Source of the DNA: a virus
DNA: 64,000 nucleotides
Direction: 5' to 3' (one strand)
Virus record (IMG/VR): IMGVR_UViG_3300027917_000046
Span: 3,078 to 67,077 of that record
This document shows positions 13,604 through 38,344 of this stretch, piece by piece; the first letter of the stretch is position 1; each line of letters starts with the position of its first letter. The notes below the pieces were generated by a model. It ran no database searches and was not told the DNA's origin. It saw only the letters and a program-made list of their open reading frames with translations. Position numbers and translations under genes: made by a program.

Positions 13604-13679
13604 GGAGCTAGCTGCGGGGTAACCGCGGTGAAGGGGCGAGCGTTAAGCCACTGTGGCAACACGCTCCCCCGCTCCACCA
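13604..13679 (+). ncRNA. Candidate 76-nt structured RNA with acceptor-like stem and ACCA end
   Basis: GGAGC/GCTCC-ACCA; GCGG/CCGC hairpin; GGGG-c-GAGCGT/ACGCTC-CCCC arm capped by GCCA-CTG-TGGC; intergenic. Confidence 0.55.
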
Positions 13680-13694
13680 CTTAAGGAGACTTAT

Positions 13695-13955
13695 ATGAAG
13701 ATCATAGTTGACATCGAAGATCTGCAGGCTGATGAGCAAACGCTGAATCACTTGACGCATGTGCTTTATGGTGCTTTAACAGAGTTTGTCGCTGTCCGTT
13801 GTACAGAGTATGCTGGCAAAGACTACGTTGCACGCCGGTATCCGACTCTGGACGCCATGGACGCCCAAGCTATGCGTACTACAATCTGGCAACGCTGTAG
13901 GGTTGCCGATGAACTTCGCGCAGCTTGTGCCCATGGTGTTACTATTGAGGAGTAA
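13695..13955 (+). CDS. Early hypothetical protein
   Basis: TAAGGAG SD before MKIIVD. Confidence 0.65.
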   Translation: MKIIVDIEDLQADEQTLNHLTHVLYGALTEFVAVRCTEYAGKDYVARRYPTLDAMDAQAMRTTIWQRCRVADELRAACAHGVTIEE

Positions 13956-13960
13956 TAGCC

Positions 13961-14212
13961 ATGTTAGAGATCGTATTGTGGTTTGGCTTCATAACCGCGA
14001 TCGGTGAGTTCATATTGTTGAAAACACTGCCCTGTAGGCTACGAGCTTGGCTCGTAGGGCCAGGGCAGCATCTGACCCACTTTGGGTTTGCTGCATTCAA
14101 CTTATGGATTCATTGGGGCACAGTGACTGGTACGATGACTGCTGTTGTTGCATTCATTGTATCCACAGTCGTCTGTGATTTTGTGCGTCGCACGACAACG
14201 CGTAGCGCGTAA
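13961..14212 (+). CDS. Small multi-pass membrane protein
   Basis: GAGGAG SD; hydrophobic segments. Confidence 0.65.
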   Translation: MLEIVLWFGFITAIGEFILLKTLPCRLRAWLVGPGQHLTHFGFAAFNLWIHWGTVTGTMTAVVAFIVSTVVCDFVRRTTTRSA

Positions 14213-14284
14213 CGTCAGCACAAGAGCATAAGCCCTAATCCTTAACTACTTAAGATAAACGCCAACGTGTGAGAAAGGAGCAGC

Positions 14285-14617
14285 ATGGGGAAAAATATAA
14301 AGGTAGGCGATCTGGCCTATATATACCGCTCCGCTGCATGCTGCGGTGCGAACAACGACATTGGAAAGATCGGCCAGATAGCAGCCATCCATAGAGTAAC
14401 ACTGTGGTGTACTAAATGCTGGACAGCGTACACCGGAATGTATGCAACTTGGACTAGTAGTCCTGTCGATACTTATCCCATCTACATGCTCAAACCCATT
14501 GATGGACTGAGCCAGGATGAGAAGCTCGAAGAGTCCATATTTCATCCCTATGGAGAGCACGCTCGGGTAACAGAAGAGGCAGCAAAGCCCTCGCGTCCCG
14601 TCCCACAGAAGGTGTAG
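14285..14617 (+). CDS. Hypothetical protein with CxxC
   Basis: AAAGGAG SD. Confidence 0.6.
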   Translation: MGKNIKVGDLAYIYRSAACCGANNDIGKIGQIAAIHRVTLWCTKCWTAYTGMYATWTSSPVDTYPIYMLKPIDGLSQDEKLEESIFHPYGEHARVTEEAAKPSRPVPQKV

Positions 14618-14912
14618 TTTAGTTAGAGGAGTCGCATATGGTAATTATGAATGATAGACGTAGAGCCAAACTGCTGAGCAGGTTGTGGCAACACGACAGT
14701 GTCGCTGCCATACGGATCGCTGTGTGGTACTACGACGCAGATATTTTCTTTTATCTATGGTAGTCCACATGTGGAGACACAATTTATGTCGCTACTAAAG
14801 AAGGTCACAGTCCTAAGTCCTCTGGTTGAGGAGCTCGGTGTATTCATCGTGCCCGAGAACTCAGTTGCTTGTAATCTGTTGTTATACCTGCTTGAGGAGA
14901 AAGAGATTGCCT

Positions 14913-15206
14913 ATGACATCGAATCCATCCAAAGACCGGGGTCGCGTAGTTCACTGCAAGAAAGAGAAGTTTGATGTATATATCGGACGGCCTGGGTACT
15001 TCGGTAATCCGTTCGTACTACATCGAGAACAAGATCGTGAGTCTGTCGTTCATCGTTACGAGCTCTATGCTCGGAAGCGCATGATCGAGGACATCGAGTT
15101 CGAGAAAAAGATCAAAGACCTGTACGGCAAAACGCTTGGATGCTATTGTGCTCCAAGACTTTGTCATGGAGATATCTTGTTAAAAATCGCAGAGGAGCTA
15201 CAGTAA
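14913..15206 (+). CDS. DUF4326-family protein
   Basis: 'VVHCKKEKFDVYIGRPGYFGNPF' and 'LYGKTLGCYCAPRLCHGDIL'. Confidence 0.85.
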   Translation: MTSNPSKDRGRVVHCKKEKFDVYIGRPGYFGNPFVLHREQDRESVVHRYELYARKRMIEDIEFEKKIKDLYGKTLGCYCAPRLCHGDILLKIAEELQ

Positions 15207-15215
15207 TTAACCAAT

Positions 15216-15302
15216 GGATGAGACGCCCAAATGGTAGGGCACCGGGCTGTAAACCCGTGGTCGGCTAGTTCCGTGTAGGTTCGAATCCTACCTCATCCAC
15301 CA
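15216..15302 (+). tRNA. tRNA-Tyr(GTA)
   Basis: GGATGAG/CTCATCC acceptor, loop CTGTAAA, long variable arm, GTAGG-TTCGAAT-CCTAC T arm, ACCA end. Confidence 0.93.
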
Positions 15303-15323
15303 AATTTGCACTATGGAGCCGCT

Positions 15324-15518
15324 ATGAAAACCTTCTTAGTAGACTACAAATACAGAGTCAAAGCAGTCAATGATGTAGATGCGCAAGAACGCACGCTATT
15401 GTACATCTATAACTCTGATTACCGTAATGCGTGCAAAGCATCGAGTAATCCAGTCGTCAAGGAAGAGATCACCATCAGACAAGTAACTGAATCAGACGGA
15501 TGGGAGATAGCACCATGA
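15324..15518 (+). CDS. Hypothetical protein
   Basis: GGAG SD before MKTFLVD. Confidence 0.5.
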   Translation: MKTFLVDYKYRVKAVNDVDAQERTLLYIYNSDYRNACKASSNPVVKEEITIRQVTESDGWEIAP

Positions 15519-15856
15519 AAATACGTAAGATAGTAACTGTCGAAACAAGAATGTTCAGAATCATCGTTATGTGCGGCATAGTTATATTCTTGTTCTCAGT
15601 TATTTGTTTGTTAGCCGCCATTATGGCAGAACAAGAGTTGCGTTACCTGCAGAAACGCAGCTCATATCCAATACGTGTTGAGAAGGAGATCTTCGATGTT
15701 GGAACCTACAGGTGTCAAAAACAGCTCGATTACGTCATCTTCCCACGGAAAGGTCAAACGTACGTATTCGCATGTAGTGACGGCAACAAATACAAAGACA
15801 CCATCACCCTTACAACGACAGTGGATAAGCCAGCAGTCGACTATGCATTGGACTAA
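15515..15856 (+). CDS. Membrane-anchored hypothetical protein
   Basis: One strong TM segment; ATGA coupling. Confidence 0.55.
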   Translation: MKIRKIVTVETRMFRIIVMCGIVIFLFSVICLLAAIMAEQELRYLQKRSSYPIRVEKEIFDVGTYRCQKQLDYVIFPRKGQTYVFACSDGNKYKDTITLTTTVDKPAVDYALD

Positions 15857-16319
15857 CTGGCTACTGACCGTTTTCATATTACTACTCTTGTCTTTCGCTT
15901 ATAGTAATGTTGATGGTGCTGATTTATCTTTGAAGGATAAAGTAGGGTCAGTACTTATTTTGCATGACAGTAAGTGTGATAGTAAGAAAGTACTTTATGT
16001 CATGACATATAGAAAGCTTCCAACGAAAGGAATGAAAAATGCTGAGTTCTTCTCAGTCAGTAAAGGAGCAACAAAAGGATGCTGGGATGCGAACCCGAAA
16101 ACAGGACAAATCTTCCTCCTCTTCGAAAACGGCATGTGGTCAACCAGTTTCTATCTACACCAGTTTGGAGAAGAAGGCAAAGAGCTCAGACCTCGTAGCG
16201 GCCAACAGAGTAAACACCATACTAACAAGAAACAGTTCTTCGCCGAATTGGCCAGAGACACAGCTAATGATGGCTATATTACATCAAACAGTAATGGATC
16301 TAATAAGCCCGGAAGATGA
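15843..16319 (+). CDS. Exported protein, probable paralog of 282..704
   Basis: Signal peptide MHWTNWLLTVFILLLLSFA; 'LILHDSKC...KGCW...IFLLFENG'. Confidence 0.55.
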   Translation: MHWTNWLLTVFILLLLSFAYSNVDGADLSLKDKVGSVLILHDSKCDSKKVLYVMTYRKLPTKGMKNAEFFSVSKGATKGCWDANPKTGQIFLLFENGMWSTSFYLHQFGEEGKELRPRSGQQSKHHTNKKQFFAELARDTANDGYITSNSNGSNKPGR

Positions 16320-16603
16320 ATACATTGAAGCAAATGCAAGAAGGTTTCTAAGAATGAAATGGTTCACAATGGTTTGTGACTATTGTGGTTTAGATCCACA
16401 ATTTGCTCGCGAACTGATAAGAGGAGCTCATGAAATCAAGAGACAACGAAAAACCCATTGAAGTAGCAATCGACTCAAGTTCACCTTTATGGCGCCTGCT
16501 TGAGCCGATAGATCCAAACGGTGATCCTCTCGACCTGTTAATCAGGGCTGAGGATGGCGACGAAATCGCAATTTCAATCTTAAGACCATGGAAAGGAAAC
16601 ACA

Positions 16604-17524
16604 ATGAACTACCTGAATCATCTTGTAAACGAATGCGACGAGAACCGCATCAGTCAGTCTGCCCTCGTCACGGCGATTCGTTCCATCGCTAACCTCTGTC
16701 ACGGAAATCTGCAAACCATCAGCAGCGTACGTCTCGCCAACATCGAGAAACGCGGCGATGCTGATTTGACCCGTGCAATGGTGGAAGGCACGATGGATCA
16801 TCCCGCCGGCGAACCAGGCGACGAAGGAGCTGAAATCGAACGTTCAGCAGAGCTTGGTTTTGCACATCGTCTGACCGTAACGCAACGTGGTGATTGCTTT
16901 GCTTCAATCAGGGAAGCATGTTTCAATCTGGCTGCAGAACGCGGCTTTACTGGGTTCGATGCACCCCGTAACTTCAAGGATTACCTCGAAGGTAGGGTCG
17001 CCCGCCTTCGTACCGGCGCTGTCAGTGAAGCTGATATTGCTGTGATCCAGAAGAAGATGCTGGGTTATGATCGTGACCAAGCAAAGGCTTTTGCCCTGAA
17101 GAGCAACAAAGCTCGTGCAGAAGAGCTCGAGAAGAACGCAGACGCAGTAATCGCTGAAGACAGTTCGTACGAAACTGACATCGACTTTGAGGAAGCCTGT
17201 GGTTCGCTGGGTTGGCTATTCCAGCAACGCATGCGCGTCAAGGTTATCGACGGTATCATGTATGAAGTCAAGCGAATCGACAAGGTTCTGGAGAATCACA
17301 CAACGTTTGAAGCACTCATCGCAAAAAGGAACGATCTGTCCCTTGATGCGCTCGTCCTCGAGAATGAGCTCAAACAATTCGAGAGGACCTACCGTACCTC
17401 CATCAACAAAGAAATGGGTGAGACTGGTTGGACGCCCTCGGTAGTTGATCCTGAACATCAGAGCAAGATGAACTACACCAGGAAGTTGATTGCACTGCAG
17501 GCGCAAGAGCAGCAAGCTGCTTAG
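16604..17524 (+). CDS. Helical early protein of unknown function (in-frame extension from 16430)
   Basis: AAAGGA SD before MNYLNH; followed by terminator. Confidence 0.7.
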   Translation: MNYLNHLVNECDENRISQSALVTAIRSIANLCHGNLQTISSVRLANIEKRGDADLTRAMVEGTMDHPAGEPGDEGAEIERSAELGFAHRLTVTQRGDCFASIREACFNLAAERGFTGFDAPRNFKDYLEGRVARLRTGAVSEADIAVIQKKMLGYDRDQAKAFALKSNKARAEELEKNADAVIAEDSSYETDIDFEEACGSLGWLFQQRMRVKVIDGIMYEVKRIDKVLENHTTFEALIAKRNDLSLDALVLENELKQFERTYRTSINKEMGETGWTPSVVDPEHQSKMNYTRKLIALQAQEQQAA

Positions 17525-17554
17525 TCTGTCTCCTCAGCGGCTCCTCGCTGATTA

Positions 17555-17590
17555 CCCCGCCGGTGGCAACCCCACTGGCGGGGGTTTTTT
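17555..17590 (+). terminator. Rho-independent terminator
   Basis: CCCCGCCGGTGG-loop-CCACTGGCGGGG followed by T-run. Confidence 0.9.
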
Positions 17591-17621
17591 ATTTGAATAA
17601 CTACTCTATATGGGGACTAAT

Positions 17622-18212
17622 ATGAAACGTCCATTTTGGTTTATGTACGCAGTCATACTGGGTACACTTTTGTTGTTTGGCAACGGTAACGCAGCTCCTC
17701 CAGTGTTTGAAGGTGGTCTCGGTTTCGGTAAGGGGCAGGGAGTAGCCTGTAATGGCCCCGCTGCGCTCATGAATCCGTTCTGTAGAGGCGTAACACCACC
17801 GTCTCCTCCGCCTCCGCCCGTAACACCTCCGCCCGTAACACCTCCTCCTGTGACGCCTCCTCCTGTGACGCCTCCGCCCGTAACACCTCCGCCCGTAACA
17901 CCTCCGCCCACGGTAACACCGCCTGTAGCACCGCCACCGCCTAGTACTACGCCGCCGGCTACAACGCCACCGAGTACAGCAGCGCCGTCATCGCAAGGTG
18001 GAAGTAATGCAACGCAGAATGCGGGCCATAGTGGCAAATCTACATTTGCCAAGGTTGTAGAAATTGGCATCGCTGCAATTACGGCCTACATCATTATCTG
18101 TATGATCGTTGAGCAGAACGATGATGTCTCCCAGGAAGATAAAGACTACTGGTGTGGTCGAGACGAAGAGTGGGAAGGTACTCCATTCCCAGTTGACAAC
18201 TCAATCGATTAG
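17622..18212 (+). CDS. Proline-rich type I membrane protein with PPPVT repeats
   Basis: Signal peptide, Cys pair, tandem PPPVT, TM 'IGIAAITAYIIICMIV', acidic tail. Confidence 0.75.
   Translation: MKRPFWFMYAVILGTLLLFGNGNAAPPVFEGGLGFGKGQGVACNGPAALMNPFCRGVTPPSPPPPPVTPPPVTPPPVTPPPVTPPPVTPPPVTPPPTVTPPVAPPPPSTTPPATTPPSTAAPSSQGGSNATQNAGHSGKSTFAKVVEIGIAAITAYIIICMIVEQNDDVSQEDKDYWCGRDEEWEGTPFPVDNSID
17789..17945 (+). repeat. 15-bp coding tandem repeat (CCTCCGCCCGTAACA and variants)
   Basis: Directly visible; encodes PPPVT. Confidence 0.9.
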
Positions 18213-18219
18213 TTTTGAA

Positions 18220-18281
18220 TGGGAACTGGTGGTACCCAATGGCGGGTTTAAATGGAATGCCCCTCCAGCCACCAGAGCCCA
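18220..18281 (+). ncRNA. Candidate three-way-junction RNA element
   Basis: TGGG/CCCA, CTGGTGGT/GCCACCAG, ACCC/GGGT and TGGA/TCCA stems; loops AATGGC and ATGCCCC share GGC/GCC complementarity. Confidence 0.45.
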
Positions 18282-18296
18282 AGTGAAAGAGAAGAA

Positions 18297-19617
18297 ATGA
18301 GCGAGACGACTATCCTTGTTGTGCTGTGGGCCATAACGAGTGTAATTTACATAGGTGTATTCCTACACGCTTATTACAGGATGGGGGAGGGTTTTATGAA
18401 AACGAATACTTTGGGCGACATTATTCGCAAGGCAGAGCTTAAGCAAGATCGAATTGACGCCTATCGACGCGGCGAATATGTCATTGGTCATCACGCGTTT
18501 GATGGTTGCACTGGGTTATGGACCAAGGCGGATTGGATCAAGGCCGTCACGTTCAATGATCCGCGTTTGGAAAAGGAAAAGTTTGATGACTAACCTGCCT
18601 CAGCTTATGAGCGAGACGCCGAGAACGGATGCCCTTACCGGAACATTTTATTTGCGATGCGATGAATGCCCGCAACCTGATAGATGCGAGCGTATGAAAT
18701 CCGTGCATCCTGACGACGTGAAAGCCCTTGAACGCGAACTAGCCGCTGTCGAGGCGAAGCTGCGGGAGTGCGAGAAAGATGCGGAACGGTGGCGGATTTT
18801 GGTCGATAAATCTTTAGGCCCGGTTCCTACGTTTTCTATTCACTATTGCATAGGGCACGATTGGTGCCGAGCGGTCTGGCGCGGGGAGCTGCAATCCGTC
18901 ATCGACGCAGCGAGGGAGGAAAAATGAGCGAGACACCTAGAACAGATGCGAATAGTTGGATTAGTCCAGAAAGCGATTCGGGACGTGTTTGTGATGCGCG
19001 TTTTGCCGCCGAACTAGAACTTCAGTTGGCCGTCGCTAAGGCCACGTTCAAGAAAGCAACAGGCTATACACTGGAGGAATACGCAAAGATGAGACAGGAG
19101 ATCGCAAATGAGCGATGAATGTATGTACCCCGGCTGTCATCGCAGATCGAGCGGCTATTATGACATTACGATTACCGGCATCGGGGACTTCATCTTCCAT
19201 TGCGATGACGTAATTCATAAAGAATGGGCCTTTGCAAAAGAAAGGATGATTAGTGAAAGGCGAAAAAAAGAGCGCGAGGAAAAGAAAATGAGCCACTACA
19301 TAGAACGATGGTGCCAAGAGCATAAGGAATGGGACGACGATGTAGATTGCCCATCAGAAGGATGTCCGAAGTGTATCGAGGAAGGGAAATTCAAGACGCG
19401 GGCTATGCTGAAAGCGGAAGTCGAGCGGCTGACGCGGGAGCGGGATGAGGCGCAGGAGGATGCGGAGCGATATCGTAAAAAACGCGATATTGATGCCGGA
19501 GCATATGTCAGGTCCGATGCTTATCGGAACAATCCACCGAGGGTTCGTGATTCATTGTTAGCCGCTTGGTGGGAGGCATACAACGCCGCCATTGACGCAG
19601 CACGGGAGGAGAAATGA
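18297..19617 (+). other. Array of short modular ORFs (18297-18593, 18586-18927, 18924-19118, 19108-19617)
   Basis: Recurring MSETPRTDA starts, DAER motif, IDAAREEK ends, overlapping stop/start codons. Confidence 0.7.
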
Positions 19618-20645
19618 GTGAACAAGTAGCCCTGTTTCTCGGACGCTTTGCCCCGTTTCATAATGGACATCTGTATGTGCTGAAACGAGCAATGCAGAAA
19701 TACGATCATGTGATCATGGGCGTTTGCGGATATAACAGATCCTGTGATCCAAAAACCCCGTTCTCTCCATATGATAGAATTTGGATGATTCAAAATGCTA
19801 TAGAAGGAAATTTCAAAGTTTCGTATATCTACGTAAACGATTACCCGGATAGCGATCACGAATGGGCTACTGAAATCATCAAGAGCCTAGAATTCAAGAT
19901 GCCTAAAGCAAAAGTAACTATCATTGGCGCACCAAAAGATACAGATACGGACTACTATTTGAACTATCTCTCCGAAGTAACGGGTTGGCCTTTGGACCTT
20001 ATACCTTATACCACCGTCAACATTCTCCCTAGTTCTACGCTTGTCCGCGAATTACTCTTTCACGGATCGCTTAAAGGCGAATATGTCACGGATCCTTTTG
20101 CATTTATATCTTATCTTGTTCCCCCTTCTACTTTGAAGTTTCTTCATTCTTATATCAATACATCAGAATATAAACTCATAGTTAATTGGATTGAACAAAA
20201 CAGAGCTTTACGCAGTTTTCAACGTGCAGGAGAACCTATTTTTGTAACCACAGACGCCATATTAAGAAATATCGATAGACAAATTCTTATAATTAAACGC
20301 GGTGGAGCGACGGGCCATGGGTTGTGGGCTTTACCAGGAGGATTCGCTGAACCTGACTTAACGTTAGTAGAAAACATGCGTAAGGAATTACGCGAAGAAG
20401 TAGGTGTTGATCTAAAGAATCAGAATCCAATCCATTCGTGGGTCGAAGACAAAGTTGACCGGAGTACTAGAGGACGCACCATCACGCATGTTTTCGTGTG
20501 GGAAGTAGGGGCACCAAATGTATTCCGATCAAATGAGGCTTTAGAGTTTCGTTGGGTTTCTTTTAAGAATTTTCCAAAAGCACAGGAGTGGTTTGAAGAC
20601 CATTATTTCCTTGCTCAAAAAGGACTAATTTATGATAATAAATGA
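19614..20645 (+). CDS. nadM: Bifunctional NMN adenylyltransferase / NUDIX hydrolase (NadM-NUDIX, NatV-like)
   Basis: 'GRFAPFHNGH' HxGH motif; 'WALPGGF...KELREEVG' NUDIX box; 'FEDHY'. Confidence 0.93.
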   Translation: MSEQVALFLGRFAPFHNGHLYVLKRAMQKYDHVIMGVCGYNRSCDPKTPFSPYDRIWMIQNAIEGNFKVSYIYVNDYPDSDHEWATEIIKSLEFKMPKAKVTIIGAPKDTDTDYYLNYLSEVTGWPLDLIPYTTVNILPSSTLVRELLFHGSLKGEYVTDPFAFISYLVPPSTLKFLHSYINTSEYKLIVNWIEQNRALRSFQRAGEPIFVTTDAILRNIDRQILIIKRGGATGHGLWALPGGFAEPDLTLVENMRKELREEVGVDLKNQNPIHSWVEDKVDRSTRGRTITHVFVWEVGAPNVFRSNEALEFRWVSFKNFPKAQEWFEDHYFLAQKGLIYDNK

Positions 20646-22038
20646 AGATACTACATTGAACCCACTGTTTAGGTCGGACTCCTACAAGCACAGTCACGCA
20701 CCATTATACCCTCCAGGCATTACAGGCATGGATGCGTATATTACCGCAAGGAAGAAAGGTGCGCGTGTCATGTTGTTTGGCTTGCAGATGCACCTGCGTA
20801 AATGGCTCGAAAATATTTGGCCTATTCAACCGTATGATGTAGCAGAGACCGCTGAATTTCTCGCAAGTCATGGAGAACCATTCGATGAAAAACCTTGGAT
20901 GTACCTCATTGAAAAATACGGCGGCTATCCGCCCGTCACCATTAAAGCCATACCTGAAGGTCTTCTCGTCCCGGCTCAATGCCCACTGGTACGTATCACA
21001 TGTACTGATCCGAAGCTCTTCTGGTTACCTATGTTCCTTGAGACGGATCTCCAAAGAGCCGTTTGGTACCCCTCAAGTGTCGCCAGCCAAGACCACGAAC
21101 ACTACCTTGCTATCAAGCGGTGGTGGGGTCTCACTTGTGATTCCTTCGCAGGAATGGAATTCGCACTACACGACTTTGGAGGGCGAGGCGTCACGTGTGG
21201 AGAACAGGCCCAAATCGGAGGCGCTGCTCACCTTGTGCACTTTAGCGGATCTGACACGTTAGAAGGAGTGTGGGCTGCAAATAAATACTACGACGCACAA
21301 ATGGCCGGATTTAGCGTCCCCGCGTCCGAGCACAGTATCCAGTGCGCTTGGGGCCCCTTACGGCAAAAAGAATACTTAGAGCACGTCTTGCACACGTACG
21401 CCAAAGAAGGAACGATCGTTAGTATTGTATTGGATGGATACGATACACTTCGGGAGGTCACTACATTATGCACTGTCCTTAAAGACAAAATCGTTGGATC
21501 TAAGGCTCTCAAGGTGGTATTCAGGCCTGACAGCGGAGACGCGATCAAGTTGGTCGGAGAAATTCTCCAGATACAAGCAGCAGTGTTTGGAACCACTCGT
21601 AATCAACGTGGTTATAAGGAGCTTAATGGTGTGGGCGTTATCCAAGGCGACGGTGTCGACAAAACTGCGATTGAAGCGATATTGGCCAGGGCGGAGGCCT
21701 TGGGCTTCGCGTCAAACAATATTGTATTTGGCTCCGGCGGCGCACTCCTCCAAAAACTTAATCGCGACACGTATGGTTTCGCGCAGAAAGCTTCCGCTGT
21801 GGAGGAAATCCACCGTTGGAAAGGAATATACAAAGATCCGGTTACAGATCCCGACAAGCGATCGGCGGCTGGCAAATTGGAGACGTTCCGCTCATTGCTC
21901 ACCAGCGAGTATGTATGCCTGGACACAATCGAAAAAATATCCGACGAGTTTGTGCCTGTCATGAGAGTTGTGTACGATAAGGGCATTTTACATAACCTAG
22001 AATCGCTTGACCTGATACGAAAAAGAGCTCGCACATGA
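20632..22038 (+). CDS. nadV: Nicotinamide phosphoribosyltransferase (Nampt)
   Basis: 'DSYKHSH', 'LHDFGGRG', 'SVPASEHS', 'RPDSGD', 'IQGDGV', 'FGSGGALLQ'. Confidence 0.95.
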   Translation: MIINEDTTLNPLFRSDSYKHSHAPLYPPGITGMDAYITARKKGARVMLFGLQMHLRKWLENIWPIQPYDVAETAEFLASHGEPFDEKPWMYLIEKYGGYPPVTIKAIPEGLLVPAQCPLVRITCTDPKLFWLPMFLETDLQRAVWYPSSVASQDHEHYLAIKRWWGLTCDSFAGMEFALHDFGGRGVTCGEQAQIGGAAHLVHFSGSDTLEGVWAANKYYDAQMAGFSVPASEHSIQCAWGPLRQKEYLEHVLHTYAKEGTIVSIVLDGYDTLREVTTLCTVLKDKIVGSKALKVVFRPDSGDAIKLVGEILQIQAAVFGTTRNQRGYKELNGVGVIQGDGVDKTAIEAILARAEALGFASNNIVFGSGGALLQKLNRDTYGFAQKASAVEEIHRWKGIYKDPVTDPDKRSAAGKLETFRSLLTSEYVCLDTIEKISDEFVPVMRVVYDKGILHNLESLDLIRKRART

Positions 22039-24324: not shown

Positions 24325-24333
24325 GAGATATTT

Positions 24334-24694: not shown

Positions 24695-24700
24695 TCAATA

Positions 24701-24796: not shown

Positions 24797-24813
24797 CTCT
24801 ATTAAGGATTACC

Positions 24814-29851: not shown

Positions 29852-29853
29852 CC

Positions 29854-30903
29854 ATGATTCCTATGATTGTAACAAAAGACGGCATTAACTTCATGCTTGG
29901 CTCTAAGCCGTACCATGTAGCGCGAACTGATCCGCATTTTGAAGATGTGTATAATGCGGTGAAGAACGATGCTGATGACTGGGAGATTGAGGAAATTCTC
30001 AATCGTGTCAAGAACCAGCTAGGCAAACTTCAGGATCTGTCACCGCGTCTGTCGTTCGATGGCGCAGTAATTTGGTTCAATGGAGAAATACTGCGTAATT
30101 ACGCAGCTGATCGTCTGCTCGCTATGCTCGCCAGCGGCGATCCGATCGATCCGGTTGTCAACTTCCTAGAGAACCTGCTCGAGAACCCGAGTAAAACGGT
30201 GGTCGATAACTTGTACAGCTTCCTGGAACACGGCAGGATCCCGTTGACGCAGGATGGACACTTTCTGGTGTACAAGGCGATCAACAAAGACTGGACCGAT
30301 ATCTATACCGGAAAGTTCGACAACAGTATCGGGGCTAAACCCGAAATGGTGCGAAACAAAGTCGACGAGGATCGGAACCGTACGTGTTCGACGGGATTTC
30401 ACGTTTGCAGTTACGACTACTTGCCGCATTTTGCGCACGCGGATGGGCACGTGGTTGTCTGTAAGGTAAATCCGGCAGACGTGGTAGCTATCCCGAACGA
30501 CTACAACGATACCAAGATGCGCGTATGCAGGTACGAGGTTATCAGTGAGGTCGACGAATACTACCGCAATGAAGAGAACATCCTGACCACGCAGCCTCTG
30601 TTCCACGTCGGCGGAGTCGATCCGGATTCATATGGATTCGATGACGACGAAGAGGAAGAGGAAGAGGAAGATGATGAAGAAGCATCGGCAGAAGCTGGTG
30701 ATACGTACGCTATTCGCGCTCGCCGCCACGGCTGTCAAGTCTCCGAGGTTGTTGAAGATGGGATAGAAGGCTACAAGAACGCGCACACATCTGCTCGTGA
30801 GAAGTTTATTGCAGGTACTTCGCGTGGTGGTGTGGTAGCAGTAGCCGTGGTCAATGAAAATACGGGTGAGTTGATGTACACCTGGGGCCTATGGACCGCC
30901 TAA
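29854..30903 (+). CDS. rIIB: rIIB-like protein
   Basis: 'NFLENLLENPS', 'TQDGHFLVYK', 'CSTGFHVCS', 'VNPADVVAIPNDYNDTKMRVCRYEV'. Confidence 0.93.
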   Translation: MIPMIVTKDGINFMLGSKPYHVARTDPHFEDVYNAVKNDADDWEIEEILNRVKNQLGKLQDLSPRLSFDGAVIWFNGEILRNYAADRLLAMLASGDPIDPVVNFLENLLENPSKTVVDNLYSFLEHGRIPLTQDGHFLVYKAINKDWTDIYTGKFDNSIGAKPEMVRNKVDEDRNRTCSTGFHVCSYDYLPHFAHADGHVVVCKVNPADVVAIPNDYNDTKMRVCRYEVISEVDEYYRNEENILTTQPLFHVGGVDPDSYGFDDDEEEEEEEDDEEASAEAGDTYAIRARRHGCQVSEVVEDGIEGYKNAHTSAREKFIAGTSRGGVVAVAVVNENTGELMYTWGLWTA

Positions 30904-31209
30904 CCCCAGAACTAGCTCGCATCCTGCAGAAACGCATTCGTCGGGTCATAGAGAAAGCTCGCTATGACCCGGCGAGCGTTCATGATATGGAAGCGGCGGC
31001 CTACGAAGTAATCAGACCGTACTTACCATTGGAGAAGAAAGATGACACGCAGTCAGTTGATAGCAGGACTAGCAAGCATGCAGGGCAAGGACACAGGAAT
31101 CGTCGTCAAGAATCAGCAGACGGAACAGGTCATGCCCATCAAGACAGTGGGTGTGGAAAAGAACCCGTTTGGACGTGAGGACGAATTCTTAACGGTATTA
31201 TACGTATAA

Positions 31210-31267
31210 AATCAAGGATTTATGTGATATATAGAGACTTGATTTCCGCCGAGGAACGTGGTATCAT
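31210..31267 (+). promoter_or_regulatory. Promoter with upstream IHF-like site
   Basis: AATCAAGGATTTA (31210-31222); TTGATT-17 nt-TATCAT with extended -10 TG. Confidence 0.65.
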
Positions 31268-31301
31268 CGGGGCTTTCTCAAATAACGAAGAAAGCCTAGA
31301 G

Positions 31302-32015
31302 ATGAAGTTTAAAGCGTGGAGTCATTCTCGTATTACGACGTTTCAGCAATGCAAGTTCAGGGCCAAATTGGCCTACATCGATCGAATCCCCGAACCGGAG
31401 CGTCCGCTACCGCCGGGTAAAACGGAGCACGCAAATGAACGGGGTGAAAGACTTCATATCGGCGCCGAAGCGTACATCCGCGGAGGCGTGGAACTGCTAC
31501 CTGAACTATCGGCGTACTACGAAGCCGAGTTTAAACGAGCTCGAGAACTGTTCAAGCAAGGAAAACTCTCCCTCGAAGGGGAGTGGGCATTCACTAAAGA
31601 CTGGGAATCCACAGCCTGGAAATCAAGCGACGCTTGGTGTAGAATAAAGGCTGACATGGTAGCGTTCATGACCGACGATTACGCAGTAGTCGTGGATTAT
31701 AAGTCGGGCAAGAGCTATGGAAACGAACTGAAGCACACGGAGCAGTTGCGGTTGTACGCAATCGCTGCACTCCTGAAATACCCGAACATTAAGAAAGTGC
31801 GCACGGAAGCGTGGTACCTCGACCAAGATGAACTTCTATCGATGGACTACACGAGAGCACAAGCCTTGAGGTTCCTGAATAACTTTGAAACGCGTGGCAA
31901 GGAAATGACGGAGTGCGAAGAATTCCCTGCCAATCCGAATCAATACAGCTGCAAGTGGTGCCCGTATAAACCCGAGGCACTCGGCGGCACAGGACACTGC
32001 GATGTAGGCGTATAA
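31302..32015 (+). CDS. PD-(D/E)XK Cas4/RecB-like exonuclease
   Basis: 'WSHSRITTFQQC', 'KADMV...VVDYKSGK', 'QLRLYA', 'CKWCPY...C'. Confidence 0.88.
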   Translation: MKFKAWSHSRITTFQQCKFRAKLAYIDRIPEPERPLPPGKTEHANERGERLHIGAEAYIRGGVELLPELSAYYEAEFKRARELFKQGKLSLEGEWAFTKDWESTAWKSSDAWCRIKADMVAFMTDDYAVVVDYKSGKSYGNELKHTEQLRLYAIAALLKYPNIKKVRTEAWYLDQDELLSMDYTRAQALRFLNNFETRGKEMTECEEFPANPNQYSCKWCPYKPEALGGTGHCDVGV

Positions 32016-32017
32016 CA

Positions 32018-32093
32018 GCCCTGTAAGTGTAGACAGCGACATCCCTGCCTTGTAAGCAGGAGAGGACCGTGCAAATCGTGTCACAGGGCTCCA
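32018..32093 (+). tRNA. tRNA-Thr(TGT), atypical
   Basis: GCCCTGT/ACAGGGC acceptor then T-CCA; CCTGC-CTTGTAA-GCAGG anticodon arm; bulged T stem with TGCAAAT loop; D loop lacks GG. Confidence 0.75.
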
Positions 32094-32112
32094 GATTATT
32101 GTGAGGTGAGTT

Positions 32113-32445
32113 ATGAAACATCAACCAGCTACGCCGCTGCCGTGGAGCTATGTCCCGATTTCTGACTTTGACGAGGACGATGACGGCAACAAGGGGCATT
32201 GGAAAGATGGGCAATTTTTCCCCGTGACCGATGACGAATTAACGCAACAATTAACAGATCACGATTTCGCCGCCCACGCCGCCAACGCCTACCCTCGCTT
32301 GATCGAACAAGTGAAGGTATTTGCCTTCGCGGATTGGGCTTGTGACTGCGTAGATCAAGGCTGGCATGGCGAGGAGGGTCACACCCTAAGCTGCCCGCAG
32401 GGTGACGCGCAAACTTTACTCCGCGACCTCGGAGAATTGTCTTAA
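32113..32445 (+). CDS. Hypothetical protein
   Basis: GAGGTG SD; 'TPLPW...FAAHAANAYPRL' motif common in phage accessory genes. Confidence 0.65.
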   Translation: MKHQPATPLPWSYVPISDFDEDDDGNKGHWKDGQFFPVTDDELTQQLTDHDFAAHAANAYPRLIEQVKVFAFADWACDCVDQGWHGEEGHTLSCPQGDAQTLLRDLGELS

Positions 32446-32447
32446 TT

Positions 32448-32523
32448 TGCACGGTAGTATTCACGGTGAGTACACCCGGCTGTTAACCGGAGGAGCTTGG
32501 TTCGATTCCAAGCCGTGCAGCCA
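32448..32523 (+). tRNA. tRNA-Asn(GTT)
   Basis: TGCACGG/CCGTGCA acceptor, CTGTTAA loop, CTTGG-TTCGATT-CCAAG T arm, GCCA end. Confidence 0.92.
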
Positions 32524-33052
32524 GAACAGGAGGCAAAATGAGAGATTTCCGACTGAAAGTTCCTGCGTTCATCGCGGTGATCCTCACCGCTGTTGTCCTG
32601 TTCATCGCTGCGCTATTCCTGACAAGCTAGGAGACAAAATGATATGAGACTACATACTGAATGCCAAGCTGCCGGAAAATGCCTAAACGAGACAGGAAAT
32701 CACGCGCCGTGTGAGGGTGAGTGTGACCTCCAAGTAATAGAAGATTTTGAAAGGGAAGAGCGATGGGATTGTCCCTTACACGGATTGCAAGATGGACCGG
32801 AGTGTCCGCGTTGTTGATTCTAGGACTGACCGGGTTCCATAATTGGGAGCCACATGCAAACCCATGGCAAGGAGTAGTCATGACGTTCCCGAAGTCAGGT
32901 ACAGGTATATTCACTGGAGTGGCTCGCACATTTAAGACCGAAAAAGAATGTAAGAAATGGGAAATAGACACAAGAGTTAGAACAGGTAAAGTGCATTTCA
33001 TATATGCACCACAGCAGTTTGACGTAACAGGTGGTTGTAAGAAGGTGGGCTG

Positions 33053-33343
33053 ATGGCTATTAGACATTTAATTGCTGTAAATTGTCTGCAAACAAACGAT
33101 CTGTTTCAGCTATCAGAGATGCTGAAGGACGCAGTCAAAAATGCAATTGACGATAAATCGGACCCAATCAGGGATCCAGCCATCAATATAATCTGCCATC
33201 AAGTAGCATTTGCAGGAAACGGAGATCATCCCTTCCTGAAGTATTACAAAGAGTCATATGACTATTGTATGGCGCAAATACAACGTGATCAACACGGTTT
33301 ACCGGAGAAAGATGATGAAAAGCCGATTTATTCGGGTTCCTAG
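33053..33343 (+). CDS. Hypothetical protein
   Basis: TGATG coupling; ORF track. Confidence 0.55.
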   Translation: MAIRHLIAVNCLQTNDLFQLSEMLKDAVKNAIDDKSDPIRDPAINIICHQVAFAGNGDHPFLKYYKESYDYCMAQIQRDQHGLPEKDDEKPIYSGS

Positions 33344-33557
33344 TACCAGAGCAATTTTCGCAGTTGAAAACCTAGTCGCGGTTATTCCGCAGGATATAAA
33401 TGCCTATGGTTTAATCATCAAGGGCTTACCCACGGTCATGGGTGCCCTTAAAGCCGACGGTAGCGATGTCGACTTCATCGTCGAACAACTCGGCGGTGAG
33501 CTGGCCCAAACTGAGGGTACGGCTGAACAAAAGTTGGTAGATACGAATGCAGAGTAG
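33312..33557 (+). CDS. Hypothetical protein
   Basis: GGAG SD; overlaps helicase start. Confidence 0.5.
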   Translation: MMKSRFIRVPSTRAIFAVENLVAVIPQDINAYGLIIKGLPTVMGALKADGSDVDFIVEQLGGELAQTEGTAEQKLVDTNAE

Positions 33558-34938: not shown

Positions 34939-35097
34939 TCCGTGGCTCGTGTACATCGATACCCAGACATTCCTATATGCAAGATACCAAAGGAATAAAA
35001 ACGATGTGCGAGCCACAGCACCACGACTTCTCAGGCCCGACGAGGTCGAGAGGTTCCGAATAAATCCGCAGTCTGTGATAGACGAAGGAATAAATAA

Positions 35098-36963
35098 ATG
35101 AATTTAGTTACACTTGACTTTGAAACTTACCACGACGACGATTATACGCTTTCTAAACTTGCTACTTCTGAGTATGTCCGTGATCCAAGGTTTGAAGCAA
35201 TTAGTTGCGCAATCAAGATCGACGACAACCCAACGGAAGTATACTTCGGACAGGATATCCGGCGGGGACTCAAGACGGTTGACTGGGCAAACACGATCTT
35301 GCTCTGCCACCACACCCAGTTCGACGGACTCATCCTCAGCCATCACTACAACATCGTACCCGCTAAGTACGCGGACACCCTATCGATGGCACGAGGACTT
35401 CACCCCAAAGGGAAATCCGCATCGCTGGAAGAAGTGGCAAAGAAGTACGGCAAAACCAACAAATTAAAAATGCCAGATTTCAAGGGGAAACATGAATGTC
35501 AACTTACTGATGAGGAAAGGCAGGCTATTACTGCCTACAACGGTGTCGACGTCGACGCGTGCCGGGAGATCTACGATGAAATGGTCAAGAGCTTTCCTGA
35601 GGCGGAGCTCGACCTCGTTGACGTTACGGTACGTATGTTCTGCGACCCGGTACTCAAGGTGGATCTGGTTAGCGCGCAGACCGAGCTGGACAGGGAGGTT
35701 GCGGCGAAAGAAAAGGCCATTGGTGACAGTGGGTGTGATGCGAAAACCCTCTCTTCTAACAAACAATTTGTGGCGAAGCTCGAAGAACTCGGGATCGATG
35801 TCCCCAAGAAACCCAGCCCTACCGTTTCAGGTAAGATGATTCCAGCTGTCGCCAAGAGCGACGAAGCACTAACTGCGCTACTGGCTCATCCGGACGAACA
35901 AGTAGTAAAGCTGGTGGAAGGCCGATTGGCAGCAAAGTCAACGATCGGTGAATCAAGAGCCCTGCGTCTGATTAAGTATGGCACAGGTATGAATCTTCCG
36001 ATATACTTGTCATACTGTGGCGCACATACGATGAGGTGGTCAGGCGGCGACAAGCTTAACCCGCAGAACTTCAAACAAGCGCAGAAGCTCGGAGGAGCGC
36101 TGCGATCGTGCATTATGGCTCCGGACGGCCACGTCTTGGTGGTTGTGGACGCCTCTCAGATCGAGGCAAGATTCACAGCTTGGCTTGCTGGTGAGGAAGA
36201 ACTTCTCGAAGATTTCCGGCTTAAGCGCGACCCATATTGTGCGTTTGCCTCCAAAGCGTACGGTCGACCGGTCACGAAGGCCGACAAGGAAGAGCGGTTC
36301 GTAGGAAAGACCTGTGTGCTTGGCCTCGGCTACGGAATGGGCGGTGCGAAACTGCAGACAACCATCTTGGCTCAGTCGACGAACCAAGGGCTAGACCCTG
36401 TACGGCTACCACTTGACGTGTGCTACACACTTGTGTCAGTATACCGGCAAATGAATTCTAAGATTGCTAGGATGTGGGGTTGGTTGAACGACTACGGTAT
36501 CCGATACATGATCGAAGGCGAGAATGTAGAGTGGAAATGCCTCAAATTTATGCAAGATGCGGTAGAAATGCCCAATGGATTGAAGTTGCAATATCCTGGG
36601 CTTGACGGACATATCACAGAGAAGGAAGGCACAGGTTTCTTCGCAGATATGGGGCGCCACGCCGCTGTTATGGACGCATCCTATCTAACGTTCAAAGGAC
36701 GCAGTAAGATCTACGGAGGCCTGTTCCTCGAGAACATAATCCAATGTCTCGCCCGGATCAAGATCGGTGAATCAATGCGTAAAATCGCCAAGCGCTACCG
36801 CGTGGTGATGTCGTCACACGATGAAATTGTATCAGTAGTGCCAATAGCAGAAGCACAAGAAGGGCTCTATTGGATGCTCGAGCAAGTATCAACCCCACCA
36901 GTTTGGGCGCCAGACATACCACTAGCGGCCGAAGGTGGATTCGACCAGAGGTATTCAAAATGA
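35098..36963 (+). CDS. Family A DNA polymerase with 3'-5' exonuclease
   Basis: ExoI 'LDFET'; motif A 'DASQIEAR'; motif B 'RFVGKTCVLGLGYG'; motif C 'HDEIV'. Confidence 0.95.
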   Translation: MNLVTLDFETYHDDDYTLSKLATSEYVRDPRFEAISCAIKIDDNPTEVYFGQDIRRGLKTVDWANTILLCHHTQFDGLILSHHYNIVPAKYADTLSMARGLHPKGKSASLEEVAKKYGKTNKLKMPDFKGKHECQLTDEERQAITAYNGVDVDACREIYDEMVKSFPEAELDLVDVTVRMFCDPVLKVDLVSAQTELDREVAAKEKAIGDSGCDAKTLSSNKQFVAKLEELGIDVPKKPSPTVSGKMIPAVAKSDEALTALLAHPDEQVVKLVEGRLAAKSTIGESRALRLIKYGTGMNLPIYLSYCGAHTMRWSGGDKLNPQNFKQAQKLGGALRSCIMAPDGHVLVVVDASQIEARFTAWLAGEEELLEDFRLKRDPYCAFASKAYGRPVTKADKEERFVGKTCVLGLGYGMGGAKLQTTILAQSTNQGLDPVRLPLDVCYTLVSVYRQMNSKIARMWGWLNDYGIRYMIEGENVEWKCLKFMQDAVEMPNGLKLQYPGLDGHITEKEGTGFFADMGRHAAVMDASYLTFKGRSKIYGGLFLENIIQCLARIKIGESMRKIAKRYRVVMSSHDEIVSVVPIAEAQEGLYWMLEQVSTPPVWAPDIPLAAEGGFDQRYSK

Positions 36964-37334
36964 GCAGGACAGTCGCGGACCTTTCAGACGAGATTTTGGC
37001 TATTAAGAACGATATCCAAATGCATGAGCAAGAGATAACAGAACTCAAAAAACAAAAGGAGGAACTGGAAAGGGAACTTATCGCGGAAGCAGAAAAGCAG
37101 CAACTTAAATCGGGCGCGGGAACATCATCCTCGTTCTCGATTAAGGAAGAAACAGTACCACAAGCATCAGACTGGGATGAAGTTTGGAAATTCATCAAAG
37201 AGAATGATTACTTCCACATGGTTCAGAAGCGACTGTCTTCTACAGCCTGTAGAGAATTGTGGGAGCTTGGAACGACAATTCCTGGAGTAAACAAGTATAC
37301 AAGTCACAAAGTCAACGTTAAAGGAGTGGATTAA
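36960..37334 (+). CDS. Coiled-coil replication-region protein
   Basis: 'DWDEVWKFIKEN...VQKRLS...IPGV' pattern; ATGA coupling. Confidence 0.7.
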   Translation: MSRTVADLSDEILAIKNDIQMHEQEITELKKQKEELERELIAEAEKQQLKSGAGTSSSFSIKEETVPQASDWDEVWKFIKENDYFHMVQKRLSSTACRELWELGTTIPGVNKYTSHKVNVKGVD

Positions 37335-38029
37335 TGAATCCAGGTACTGAAGTATTAGACATCAACAAAGTGCTGGCTGAGGAAGCTGCTCAGATCAGCA
37401 AGCGCATCGCAGCTGGTGCGCCGTTCATCAAGTGTACGCAAGACAAGAAGTTCATGATGCCCGATAAGACGGAATCTGCTGGCCCGTTGTCGGCGGTCAT
37501 CATTGACTTCATCGCAGCGAACTATTTCTTCGATCGCGAGTATGAGAAGGGAGCCATAGTGCCCCCGGCGTGCTTCGCGCTGGCCGTGGAACCGCGCAGC
37601 ATGGTACCCCACGAGACAGCTCCTGCGAAGGAGGCGGAGGCCTGCAACGGTTGCCCGAACAACGAGTTCGGCTCGAAAGGCAAAGGAAAGGCTTGCCAGA
37701 ATACGCGGCTTCTAGCCGTGGTAAGCCCGGATGAGAAAGATCCGCAGATCTATCTGCTTAAGGTCAGCGCAACCGGCGTAAAGCCGTTCGATAACTACGT
37801 TCAGTCGATTAAGACTCAATTCAACGCCCCGCCGTTGGCGGTTGTGACCGACATCTTCTTCGACAAGAACGCACGTTACGGCTCGCTGCGGTTCGGTAAT
37901 CCGCGACCGAACCCGAAGCTCAGGGATCATTTCGAGCTCCGTGGTCAGGCTCGGGATATTCTCCTAGCACCACCGGACGTCTCGCAATATGAGCCGATCA
38001 ACGAGACCAAAGCTGCCAAGAAAAAGTAG
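37334..38029 (+). CDS. Putative ssDNA-binding/annealing protein
   Basis: 'PPACFA...CNGCPNNEFGS...KACQNTRLLAV' Cys motif; position beside polymerase. Confidence 0.6.
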   Translation: MNPGTEVLDINKVLAEEAAQISKRIAAGAPFIKCTQDKKFMMPDKTESAGPLSAVIIDFIAANYFFDREYEKGAIVPPACFALAVEPRSMVPHETAPAKEAEACNGCPNNEFGSKGKGKACQNTRLLAVVSPDEKDPQIYLLKVSATGVKPFDNYVQSIKTQFNAPPLAVVTDIFFDKNARYGSLRFGNPRPNPKLRDHFELRGQARDILLAPPDVSQYEPINETKAAKKK

Positions 38030-38215
38030 TGCGATAATGGAAGACGTCTCCCAAGCGGATTGGGAGAAGGATCACCAAGAAGCACGCAAAGCCTTTGAAC
38101 AGGCGAAAGAGCGCTTGGAAGAGGTCGAAGCAAGGAATCCGTCGCCTGCCCCCGGGTCGGGGGAACAGACCTCAGGCGAGTAAGCTGTGTGCCCTCGAGT
38201 CCCCCGCCTGATACG

Positions 38216-38344
38216 CGGGGTGTAGCCATACAGTGGTGGATCAGGGGACAGGGAGGAGAGACTCCCACCGAACAATGGCGCACGTGCGTGTCCGCCGAGC
38301 TACCAGCGATAGCGGATCGTAGGTTCAACTCCTACGGCGCCTCC
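38216..38344 (+). ncRNA. tRNA-like RNA without an anticodon loop, with expanded D-loop
   Basis: CGGGGTG/CGCCTCC acceptor-like stem, T8-A9, GCCAT/ATGGC D stem, CCGC/GCGG arm, canonical GTAGG-TTCAACT-CCTAC T arm; intergenic. Confidence 0.65.

Follow-up and report, generated by a model that had tools for sequence, protein, structure and literature searches.

Intercistronic structured RNAs, two with tRNA-like features, in the early/middle arm of an uncultured phage that encodes RtcB

Introduction

The placement of tRNA genes within operons is a known principle in phages, as is "tRNA punctuation" in mitochondria. Intercistronic RNase III sites of T7-like phages and messenger RNA (mRNA) stabilizer hairpins leave protective structures on processed mRNAs. 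The C4 and CI antisense RNAs are cut from a leader and repress the following gene, and in the C4 and M3 substrates the 5′ and 3′ ends pair and a CCA-type tail follows. The non-tRNA substrates of RNase P presented in PMC11143913 include phage M3 RNA, the precursor of the phage C4 antisense RNA, and operon mRNAs. In the account of Chen et al. (2014; PMC4201824), YrlA-type Y RNAs are tRNA mimics in which a T arm is followed by an acceptor-like stem-loop and a D arm; a long helix of the 5′ and 3′ ends closes them. They are encoded beside Ro60 (Rsr), often together with RtcB, and are placed within 4 kb of a Ro60 gene; they were reported from 254 bacterial species and 22 phages, and one of them is cut by RNase P and given CCA. 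Here, we analyzed a 64,000-nucleotide stretch (hereafter, the window) that spans bases 3078–67077 of the 67,077-bp virus record IMGVR_UViG_3300027917_000046, which is estimated to be complete and derives from an uncultured 67-kb lytic phage. Our subject is four structured elements, designated E1 to E4, that lie between genes of its early/middle arm.

A reading of the sequence alone had proposed that these four elements, three tRNAs, RtcB, and an exonuclease constitute an RNA-based counter-defense or mRNA-punctuation layer. Our analysis showed that a single strong fold, a tRNA relic, and a pair of ordinary hairpins do not amount to a system. E1 is a clearly real fold, a three-way junction that is probably under selection, and E4 is a tRNA-derived curiosity that holds a leftover tRNA arm.

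Results

The three-way junction E1

All four elements occupied true non-coding gaps at the places that the sequence-only reading had given (Table 1). The terminal helix of E1 comprises 5 bp (GGAGC/GCUCC, 13604–13608 paired with 13671–13675) and encloses a 7-bp hairpin and a long interrupted hairpin, the latter continuing the closing helix on its 3′ strand in a stacked arrangement. Overall, 26 base pairs are formed, the loops measure only 3–5 nt, and the minimum free energy (MFE) fold is the same as the centroid fold. To evaluate the stability of this and other folds, 300 dinucleotide-preserving shuffles were generated per region. None of them folded as well as the E1 core (z score of −4.30; 0/300), and the same was observed for the terminator control (17525–17609; z score of −5.20; 0/300).

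The 3′ tail of E1 is ACCA, that is, an A followed by CCA. After 1 nt it is succeeded by TTAAGGAG, with the Shine–Dalgarno (SD) sequence TTAAGGA at 13681 and an ATG at 13695, and this SD serves the gene at 13695–13955. The sequence determinants for RNase P in E1 are a G at position +1, the stacked helices, and the A-CCA end. In blastn-short comparisons, E1, E2, and E3 displayed no similarity to phage tRNAs of the kind described for E4 below, apart from a 10-nt match at the 3′ end of E1. Searched alone (13560–13700), the region of E1 gave no credible Rfam match at E ≤ 10. The tRNA-likeness of E1 is limited to its ends, and E1 is a good candidate for bench tests.

The T arm of E4

The 5′ part of E4 consists of a 6-bp hairpin (38202–38207/38215–38220), which is followed by a D-arm-like stretch and then by a middle domain. 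The last 69 nt (38276–38344; hereafter, the 3′ module) contain a 5-bp acceptor-like helix (38277–38281/38337–38341) and a canonical T arm with a 5-bp stem (38319–38335). The acceptor-like helix ends 4 nt before TTAAGGAG (TTAAGGA at 38346), with an ATG at 38359. The T-loop motif GGTTCRANYCC was found three times in the window, against 0.55 expected, namely in the two tRNAs and in E4; the T arm of E4 is therefore the sole T-arm motif outside the tRNAs, and E1, E2, and E3 have none. Moreover, in blastn-short comparisons this stretch of E4 matched genuine phage tRNAs within their T arms, the tRNA positions being equivalent. The core of E4 had a z score of −1.48 (20/300 shuffles). When the 175-nt context of E4 was folded, the MFE structure paired CUCCU (38341–38345) with AGGAG of the SD (38349–38353).

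A cloverleaf in the last 69 nt was drawn only by the mitochondrial model of ARAGORN; it lacks U33, its D stem has 3 bp, and its D loop is tiny. In an Rfam search of E4 by itself at E ≤ 10, neither a tRNA score nor a credible CRISPR direct-repeat row was obtained.

Several other identities of E4 were considered and rejected. At a lowered threshold, ARAGORN called a tRNA-Val with a 112-nt intron at 38140–38344; its acceptor was poor, its 5′ half lay inside an open reading frame (ORF), and 16 of the 18 calls at this setting looked spurious. The T arm with its 3′ strand was considered as the end of a host tRNA, as in an attP-like site, and the corresponding 23-base pattern had no exact match in the GTDB genomes and IMG/VR. 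CRISPR-repeat mimics are solitary repeats that act as RNA anti-CRISPRs, and the E4 hairpin was examined as one by scanning GTDB genomes with its two arms and a free loop; at least 120 stretches matched, all 80 that were listed had a single match, and no array was found among the matches listed. One marginal match of E4 to a locus of the search set described below, L071 (54 nt, 78% identity; blastn E of 1e-3, nhmmer E of 0.27), was treated as chance because it lacked the T arm and lay under long ORFs.

Placement of the elements and the true tRNAs

We defined a canonical tRNA by the family score of Rfam RF00005 (29 bits) or by the default threshold of ARAGORN. Three tRNAs had been claimed for the arm; only two canonical ones were found, tRNA-Tyr (GTA) and tRNA-Asn (GTT), with ARAGORN and Rfam in agreement. 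The tRNA model of Rfam gave no row for E1–E4 even at E ≤ 10 on the elements alone. The combination of a 7-bp acceptor stem, a discriminator, and a 3′ CCA was absent from E1 (5 bp, A, CCA), E3, and E4; the 10-bp helix of E3 is followed by CACC and the 5-bp helix of E4 by UCC.

The two tRNAs are inserted tightly between genes: after a stop codon, tRNA-Tyr follows at 9 nt and is itself followed after 12 nt by the next SD, and the corresponding distances for tRNA-Asn are 2 and 4 nt. E1, E3, and E4 are placed like both tRNAs, between a stop codon and the SD of the next gene. These three elements also have paired ends whose closing helix stops 4–9 nt before a TTAAGGA SD, as had been noticed from the sequence; the gap to the SD is 1 nt from the CCA of E1, 4 nt from the helix of E4, and 9 nt from the helix of E3. 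Of all our observations, the common slot argues most strongly that the transcript's E1 and E4, and possibly its E3, may be treated like tRNAs. The SD itself does not mark the elements: with 17 occurrences in the window, where 6.35 are expected, TTAAGGA also stands before several other genes, and since it serves these genes too, it is the general SD of this phage.

E2 and E3

E2 is located between the gene of a Pro-rich membrane protein (17610–18212) and the next gene, which probably starts at the ATG at 18297. Its closing helices are present, whereas TTAAGGA is absent. The E2 gap had a z score of −2.25 (6/300 shuffles) and the E2 core one of −0.61 (74/300). The upstream gene (17610–18212, + strand, early arm, directly before E2) encodes a 200-aa protein with N-terminal and C-terminal hydrophobic segments that flank approximately 70 residues of PPVTPP-type proline repeats, and the protein had no Pfam and no PHROG match.

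E3 starts 6 nt past the stop codon of the gene at 24521–24694 and ends before the TTAAGGA at 24802, with a GTG at 24814. Its core had a z score of −1.57 (18/300 shuffles). No PHROG match was found for the small ORF that begins at this GTG. In a 4-kb metagenome contig, L085, which represents the closest relative, no E3-like element or fold was found upstream of the primase gene, and small ORFs were present there instead. Neither E2 nor E3 had a match in Rfam at E ≤ 10 when searched alone. E2 and E3 are not distinguishable from ordinary hairpins of untranslated regions (UTRs) and need no special explanation; most likely, they are plain stabilizing or incidental UTR hairpins.

Fold statistics across the arm

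To place these values in the context of the whole arm, we scanned 1408 overlapping 100-nt windows and ranked the best window of each element. The terminator ranked 4, E1 ranked 7, E4 ranked 75, E2 ranked 120, and E3 ranked 393. The two real tRNAs ranked 273 and 339; this rank is therefore insensitive to tRNA-like folds and cannot exclude a tRNA-like RNA. The 35-kb arm has 49 pairs of inverted repeats that are 9 nt or longer and lie within 130 nt, and a closing helix alone is thus unremarkable. A scan for intrinsic terminators on both strands yielded 35 sites, none of which was at E1, E2, E3, or E4. Among the self-cleaving ribozymes of Rfam (hammerhead, twister, HDV-like, and others), no row at E ≤ 10 was obtained on any element.

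Two short words recurred among the elements: GCGGGGT was present in E1, E3, and E4, with one further copy 12 nt inside gene 44110, and GTGGCAAC was present in E1, in the gap at 14618, and in the terminator. We discarded these words as a link between the elements; their raw p values (approximately 4e-5 to 9e-5) are not significant because approximately 2000 words were tested after the fact. The treatment of the four elements as one set did not hold, given that they share neither sequence nor fold and that two of them are statistically ordinary.

Searches for homologs and strain variation

We assembled a search set of 1.51 Mb that contained the window, 80 RtcB-encoding IMG/VR loci, five loci of relatives, and phage KPP25. 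E1 was searched with a covariance model, and E2, E3, and E4 were searched by sequence only. The E1 model matched nothing except itself: no match at E ≤ 10 was obtained in the 86 other loci, 80 of which encode RtcB, and none in the five whole records of the nearest relatives. The suggested co-occurrence with rtcB was therefore not borne out. When the four gaps were each compared with these 86 loci by nhmmer and blastn, nothing significant was returned, the L071 match of E4 being the only marginal one. A blastn search of 50,697 phage records was negative for E1, E2, and E4, and with the gap of E3 it gave two records at E of 0.3, matched in a part outside E3. The earlier view that the elements fall outside described families was sustained in these searches, as no credible Rfam match at E ≤ 10 and no homolog elsewhere were found.

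The phage itself is without close relatives. A megablast search of 20 kb against phages gave no match, and the nearest named phages are KPP25-type Pseudomonas phages, with a primase of 41% amino-acid identity. The primase was also found in four IMG/VR contigs at 37–43% identity. The search with rIIA identified only L085 (51% identity) and nothing in IMG/VR.

The stretch was present in three marine-sediment DNA metagenome runs from two studies, and we compared the contigs of these runs with the window over 13500–33499, which covers E1, E2, and E3. There were 27 listed differing positions in 20 kb, none of which was inside E1, E2, or E3, and the contigs therefore give no information on covariation. 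In one contig, four bases were inserted into the linker that follows the CCA of E1, with the E1 body and ACCA unchanged, and three single-nucleotide polymorphisms were present within 30 nt downstream, at the start of the next gene. Such variation is compatible with E1 and the SD being separate modules, although a covariation test would require far more of it.

The same runs provided observations on the tRNAs. One contig (run X1) departs from the reference at 15312, 10 nt past tRNA-Tyr, and continues with 16 bases that are like the start of the acceptor and D arm of a further tRNA; the set of tRNAs thus seems to vary among strains of this phage. Alternative sequence was also observed around 18730–18950 and 14761–14927.

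RtcB and YrlA-type tRNA mimics in other phages

T-arm hairpins were counted in the whole search set to identify tRNA-like RNAs beyond the window. Among the 176 hairpins found in 1.51 Mb, 138 were in tRNAs called by ARAGORN and 38 were orphans, against approximately 4 expected by a rough estimate. Some orphans were tRNAs called by Rfam and not by ARAGORN, and some looked like chance occurrences in coding sequence. A distinct group remained, in which the T arm is followed by a short hairpin of acceptor-like strands and then by a canonical D arm. Three such units stand in tandem in locus L044 (8160–8665, + strand), approximately 1.4 kb upstream of rtcB, and one is found in locus L010 (1822–1979, − strand) before the gene of a DUF2828/DUF7788 protein. 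In the fold of the aligned L044 and L010 units, the 5′ flank pairs with the 3′ flank in a long helix; of the 25 predicted pairs, 11 show changes on both sides.

We had considered the L044 arrays as circularly permuted tRNA genes; this assignment was replaced by that of a YrlA-type Y RNA because of the long end-to-end helix and the published description (PMC4201824). Since the L044 and L010 units have the published YrlA architecture, phage tRNA mimics beside RNA-repair genes are of a known kind. The L044 units gave nothing in Rfam at the gathering score, and the GNCGAA motif of published YrlA was not obvious in the units of either locus. The units may therefore represent an uncatalogued YrlA subtype.

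The window holds no YrlA-type RNA. A covariance model built from the three L044 units and the L010 unit is narrow and found no match in the window at E ≤ 1; among the 86 loci, strong full-length matches were confined to two loci and to the four copies from which the model had been built. The YrlA motif GNCGAAN0-1G, searched as GNCGAANG and not in its N0 form, was matched 44 times in the window, where 43.65 matches are expected, but nowhere in E1–E4. Moreover, TROVE (PF05731) and DUF2828 (PF11443) had no match in the 67-kb genome at E ≤ 1. In the control, PF05731 exceeded the cut-off in 2 of 14 genomes, and PF11443 matched in two genomes, neither over the cut-off, which makes the latter negative the weaker one. 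The known RtcB-linked tRNA mimics of the YrlA type are thus a different thing from E1–E4 and absent from the window.

Two further RNAs were encountered in RtcB-encoding phage contigs of the search set. In a jumbo-phage contig (L064, 15578–15876, + strand), a group I intron (RF00028, 53 bits) directly precedes an orphan T arm, and this site is probably an intron-containing tRNA gene. In another contig (L055, 14783–15251, + strand), a dense cluster of tRNAs includes a GOLLD RNA (RF02032, 192 bits).

Genomic context

Genes on the + strand fill approximately 12.7–47.1 kb of the window, which we refer to as the early/middle arm, and structural and packaging arms on the − strand lie on both sides of it. 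No integrase was seen among the proteins scanned. As had been stated, RtcB and an exonuclease, which is of the Rv2179c-like type, are encoded in the arm (Table 1). The arm also encodes an SLT lysozyme, rIIA, rIIB, a PD-(D/E)XK nuclease, a DUF5906/VapE-type primase, a family A DNA polymerase, an SNF2 helicase, and an ATP-dependent DNA ligase. The best promoter match of the arm precedes the primase gene (25012–27351).

Table 1. Coordinates of the four elements and of other features, numbered from the first base of the window (SD, Shine–Dalgarno sequence).
Feature	Position	Strand	Description
E1	13604–13679	+	76-nt three-way junction in a true non-coding gap
E2	18220–18281	+	8-bp helix and 4-bp outer helix; two small inner hairpins
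E3	24701–24792	+	10-bp GC-rich closing helix (24701–24710/24783–24792); poorly defined 72-nt interior
E4	38184–38344	+	Composite GC-rich structure filling a 175-nt gap
tRNA-Tyr (GTA)	15216–15302	+	Encoded CCA; ARAGORN and Rfam
tRNA-Asn (GTT)	32448–32523	+	Encoded CCA; ARAGORN and Rfam
Intrinsic terminator	17555–17583	+	12-bp stem and U tract; the one strong site of the arm; positive control for fold statistics
RtcB RNA ligase gene	22205–23392	+	PF01139, E 1.9e-123
Putative small ORF	24814–24924	+	36 aa, hydrophobic core; served by the SD after E3
Sigma-70-like promoter	24955–24983	+	TTGAAA, 17 nt, TATAAT; 11/12; best promoter match of the arm
Rv2179c-like 3′–5′ exonuclease gene	38567–39091	+	PF16473, E 2e-48; phrog_255; two genes past E4

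The rtcB gene belongs to a tight block (19614–23392, + strand) that consists of an NMNAT–Nudix fusion (PF01467 and PF00293), NAMPT (PF04095 and PF18127), a 56-codon ORF, and RtcB. The NAMPT and NMNAT/Nudix pair presumably resembles the phage NAD-reconstitution route that counters NAD-depleting defense. Beyond the exonuclease gene, a MazZ-like dATP/dGTP diphosphohydrolase domain is encoded (39136–39792, + strand; PF18909, E of 1.2e-24). A PurZ-type adenylosuccinate synthetase (PF00709) had no match in the whole genome, and because the MazZ-like domain occurs without it, a 2-aminoadenine genome is not indicated. On the − strand, a 2226-aa virion protein (47733–54413) matched phrog_30152 across its C-terminal 780 residues (E of 2e-142) and had no Pfam domain.

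The region of the strong terminator, with its two hairpins (17527–17591, + strand), gave a full-length, sub-threshold match to RF02278, a Betaproteobacteria toxic small RNA (30.5 bits versus a gathering score of 50; E of 0.016), and contains two CUCCUC-like words. Either a small RNA or simply a terminator could be encoded there.

Discussion

The arrangement described above suggests a model in which the four elements are unrelated, lineage-specific RNA structures inside polycistronic early/middle transcripts, with two of them borrowing tRNA features. The arm would be transcribed as long messages. In these, E1 would present an acceptor/T-type minihelix with a G at +1, a terminal helix stacked on the long hairpin, and an A-CCA end, and the 3′ module of E4 would present a tRNA-derived T arm on a short acceptor-like helix. 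Host enzymes that act on tRNA ends (RNase P at the 5′ side, 3′ trimming and the CCA machinery) or other endonucleases could then cut the message at the helix boundaries. Such cuts would leave stable structured ends on the neighboring mRNAs and the next SD single-stranded, with possible effects on stability and translation. We tentatively favor this reading, in which E1 and the E4 3′ module are lineage-specific tRNA-end mimics or tRNA relics that serve as processing or stability punctuation in a polycistronic mRNA, while regarding it as somewhat short of probable. It draws on position, on fold statistics, and on tRNA-type motifs, and homologs were not found.

A number of observations weigh against it. 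The terminal helix of E1 has 5 bp rather than 7 and no T loop accompanies it, and a CCA directly after a helix is expected by chance at approximately 1/64 per element, by a rough estimate. Coding windows reach z scores like that of E1 (for example, at 22325, 30900, and 27800), and E2, E3, and E4 fold no better than shuffles at a convincing level. The permissive ARAGORN model that drew the E4 cloverleaf made 14 other calls in the 67-kb genome, only two of which were real tRNAs. No homolog that would permit a covariation test was found for any element; the gaps of KPP25 hold mostly plain hairpin terminators and no E1 analog, and the runs listed with the stretch include no RNA run.

Many of these observations would equally be expected if nothing about the elements were specific to tRNAs, which is the main rival explanation and, in our view, only slightly less probable than the reading that we favor. 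The 3′ module of E4 would then be a decaying pseudo-tRNA without a role, the ACCA of E1 a coincidence, and E1–E3 ordinary mRNA hairpins that protect the 3′ end of the upstream message, act as weak or U-less terminators, or occur by chance. The ordinary z scores of three elements, the similar scores of coding windows, the 49 comparable inverted repeats, the lack of conservation of any element in a relative, and the plain terminators of KPP25 all agree with this explanation; moreover, tRNA content varies between strains, as the contig that diverges at 15312 indicates, and tRNA gain and decay are plausible for that reason. What it does not readily explain is the 26-bp three-way junction of E1, which is hard to obtain without selection at its z score and has no U tract, the retention in E4 of a perfect T arm with an adjoining 5-bp helix, which is not expected of a decaying tRNA, and a placement identical to that of real tRNAs. 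A role as cis-regulatory 5′-UTR structures that tune the next gene, through SD accessibility or the binding of a phage protein, would accord with elements that abut the SD at 1–9 nt and with the pairing of CUCCU and the SD in the context of E4. For E1, a C4/CI-like antisense RNA is the alternative form of this explanation, and the size of E1 and its shape of two hairpins plus a closing stem are, we presume, like those of C4 RNA. The loops of E1 are only 3–5 nt, however, and no complementary target was seen nearby by inspection, which was not a systematic search; the C4 antisense RNA family, which we take to be RF01695, was not among the eight Rfam rows for 13560–13700 at E ≤ 10, and the 4-base linker insertion in the strain variant suggests that SD spacing is uncritical. 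We consider a cis-regulatory role unlikely.

A counter-defense layer that unites the elements with RtcB, the exonuclease, and both tRNAs, the excised elements acting as decoys for tRNA-targeting host nucleases while RtcB repairs the damage, appears very improbable to us. The presence of RtcB, tRNA-Tyr, tRNA-Asn, and NAD-salvage genes in the same arm makes an anti-defense flavor plausible, and RtcB-linked tRNA mimics do exist in other phages, as the YrlA-type units of L044 and L010 illustrate. Nevertheless, rtcB is 2 to 15 kb away from the elements, which are mutually unrelated, the E1 model matched none of the 80 RtcB phage loci, and the window lacks a match to the YrlA-type model at E ≤ 1, just as the genome lacks a Ro60/TROVE or DUF2828 gene. 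In addition, none of E1–E4 has a mimic of the anticodon loop, which we take to be the part that anticodon nucleases recognize. There is an equally slim chance that E1 and the E4 3′ module are new phage-encoded tRNA-end mimics that would be cut from early/middle mRNAs by host RNase P and the CCA machinery, thereby punctuate these mRNAs, accumulate as stable small RNAs, and soak up or misdirect tRNA-directed host factors alongside tRNA-Tyr, tRNA-Asn, and RtcB. In that highly unlikely joint reading, the host factors would be defense nucleases or tRNA-end-sensing regulators that switch on RNA-repair operons.

Taken together, the observation of the elements was partly confirmed, and the proposal built on it was partly supported. 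The description as tRNA mimics applies to the ends of E1 and the T arm of E4 and fails for E2 and E3. The more modest half of the proposal, namely mRNA punctuation by elements of no described family, finds support in a layout that fits and in E1, E3, and E4 sitting like tRNAs. The other half, a coordinated layer of decoys and RtcB for counter-defense, does not, given that the elements are unrelated and that the window lacks the features of the known RtcB-linked YrlA mimics. The proposed system is unproven because nothing ties the elements to each other or to RtcB. As it stands, the finding mainly illustrates that orphan RNA structures allow few conclusions when the phage has no close relatives. 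If E1 and E4 are indeed cut by tRNA-processing enzymes, phage mRNAs would be punctuated by minimal tRNA-end mimics besides true tRNAs. Such punctuation would be a compact means of defining the ends and the stability of mRNAs that requires no nuclease encoded by the phage, and possibly an evolutionary path from a tRNA gene to a processing signal.

Compared with YrlA RNAs, E4 likewise combines a T arm with a D-like arm in a non-coding RNA of an RtcB-encoding phage, whereas the order of its parts is hairpin, D-like arm, and T arm rather than T arm, acceptor hairpin, and D arm. E1 resembles the C4 precursor of P1/P7 and phage M3 RNA in being a small structured leader or intercistronic RNA with paired ends followed by a CCA-type tail. 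It differs from C4 RNA in that its loops are too short for C4-style pairing of loop and target. With intercistronic RNase III sites and stabilizer hairpins, the elements share a position between cistrons, a short distance ahead of the following ribosome-binding site, although their helices are shorter and more interrupted than the approximately two helical turns typical of RNase III sites. Relative to operon tRNAs and tRNA punctuation, E1, E3, and E4 occupy the same slot, E1 encodes CCA, and E4 has a T arm; in contrast, no element scores as a tRNA, E1 has neither a T nor an anticodon arm, and E4 lacks a proper D loop, U33, and a 7-bp acceptor stem. Phage pseudo-tRNAs differ from E4 in that E4 stands alone, with the nearest tRNA gene 5.8 kb away, and is joined to approximately 90 nt of other GC-rich structure; they are similar to it in that the 3′ module keeps a T arm and a partial acceptor stem, in a phage whose strains differ in tRNA content.

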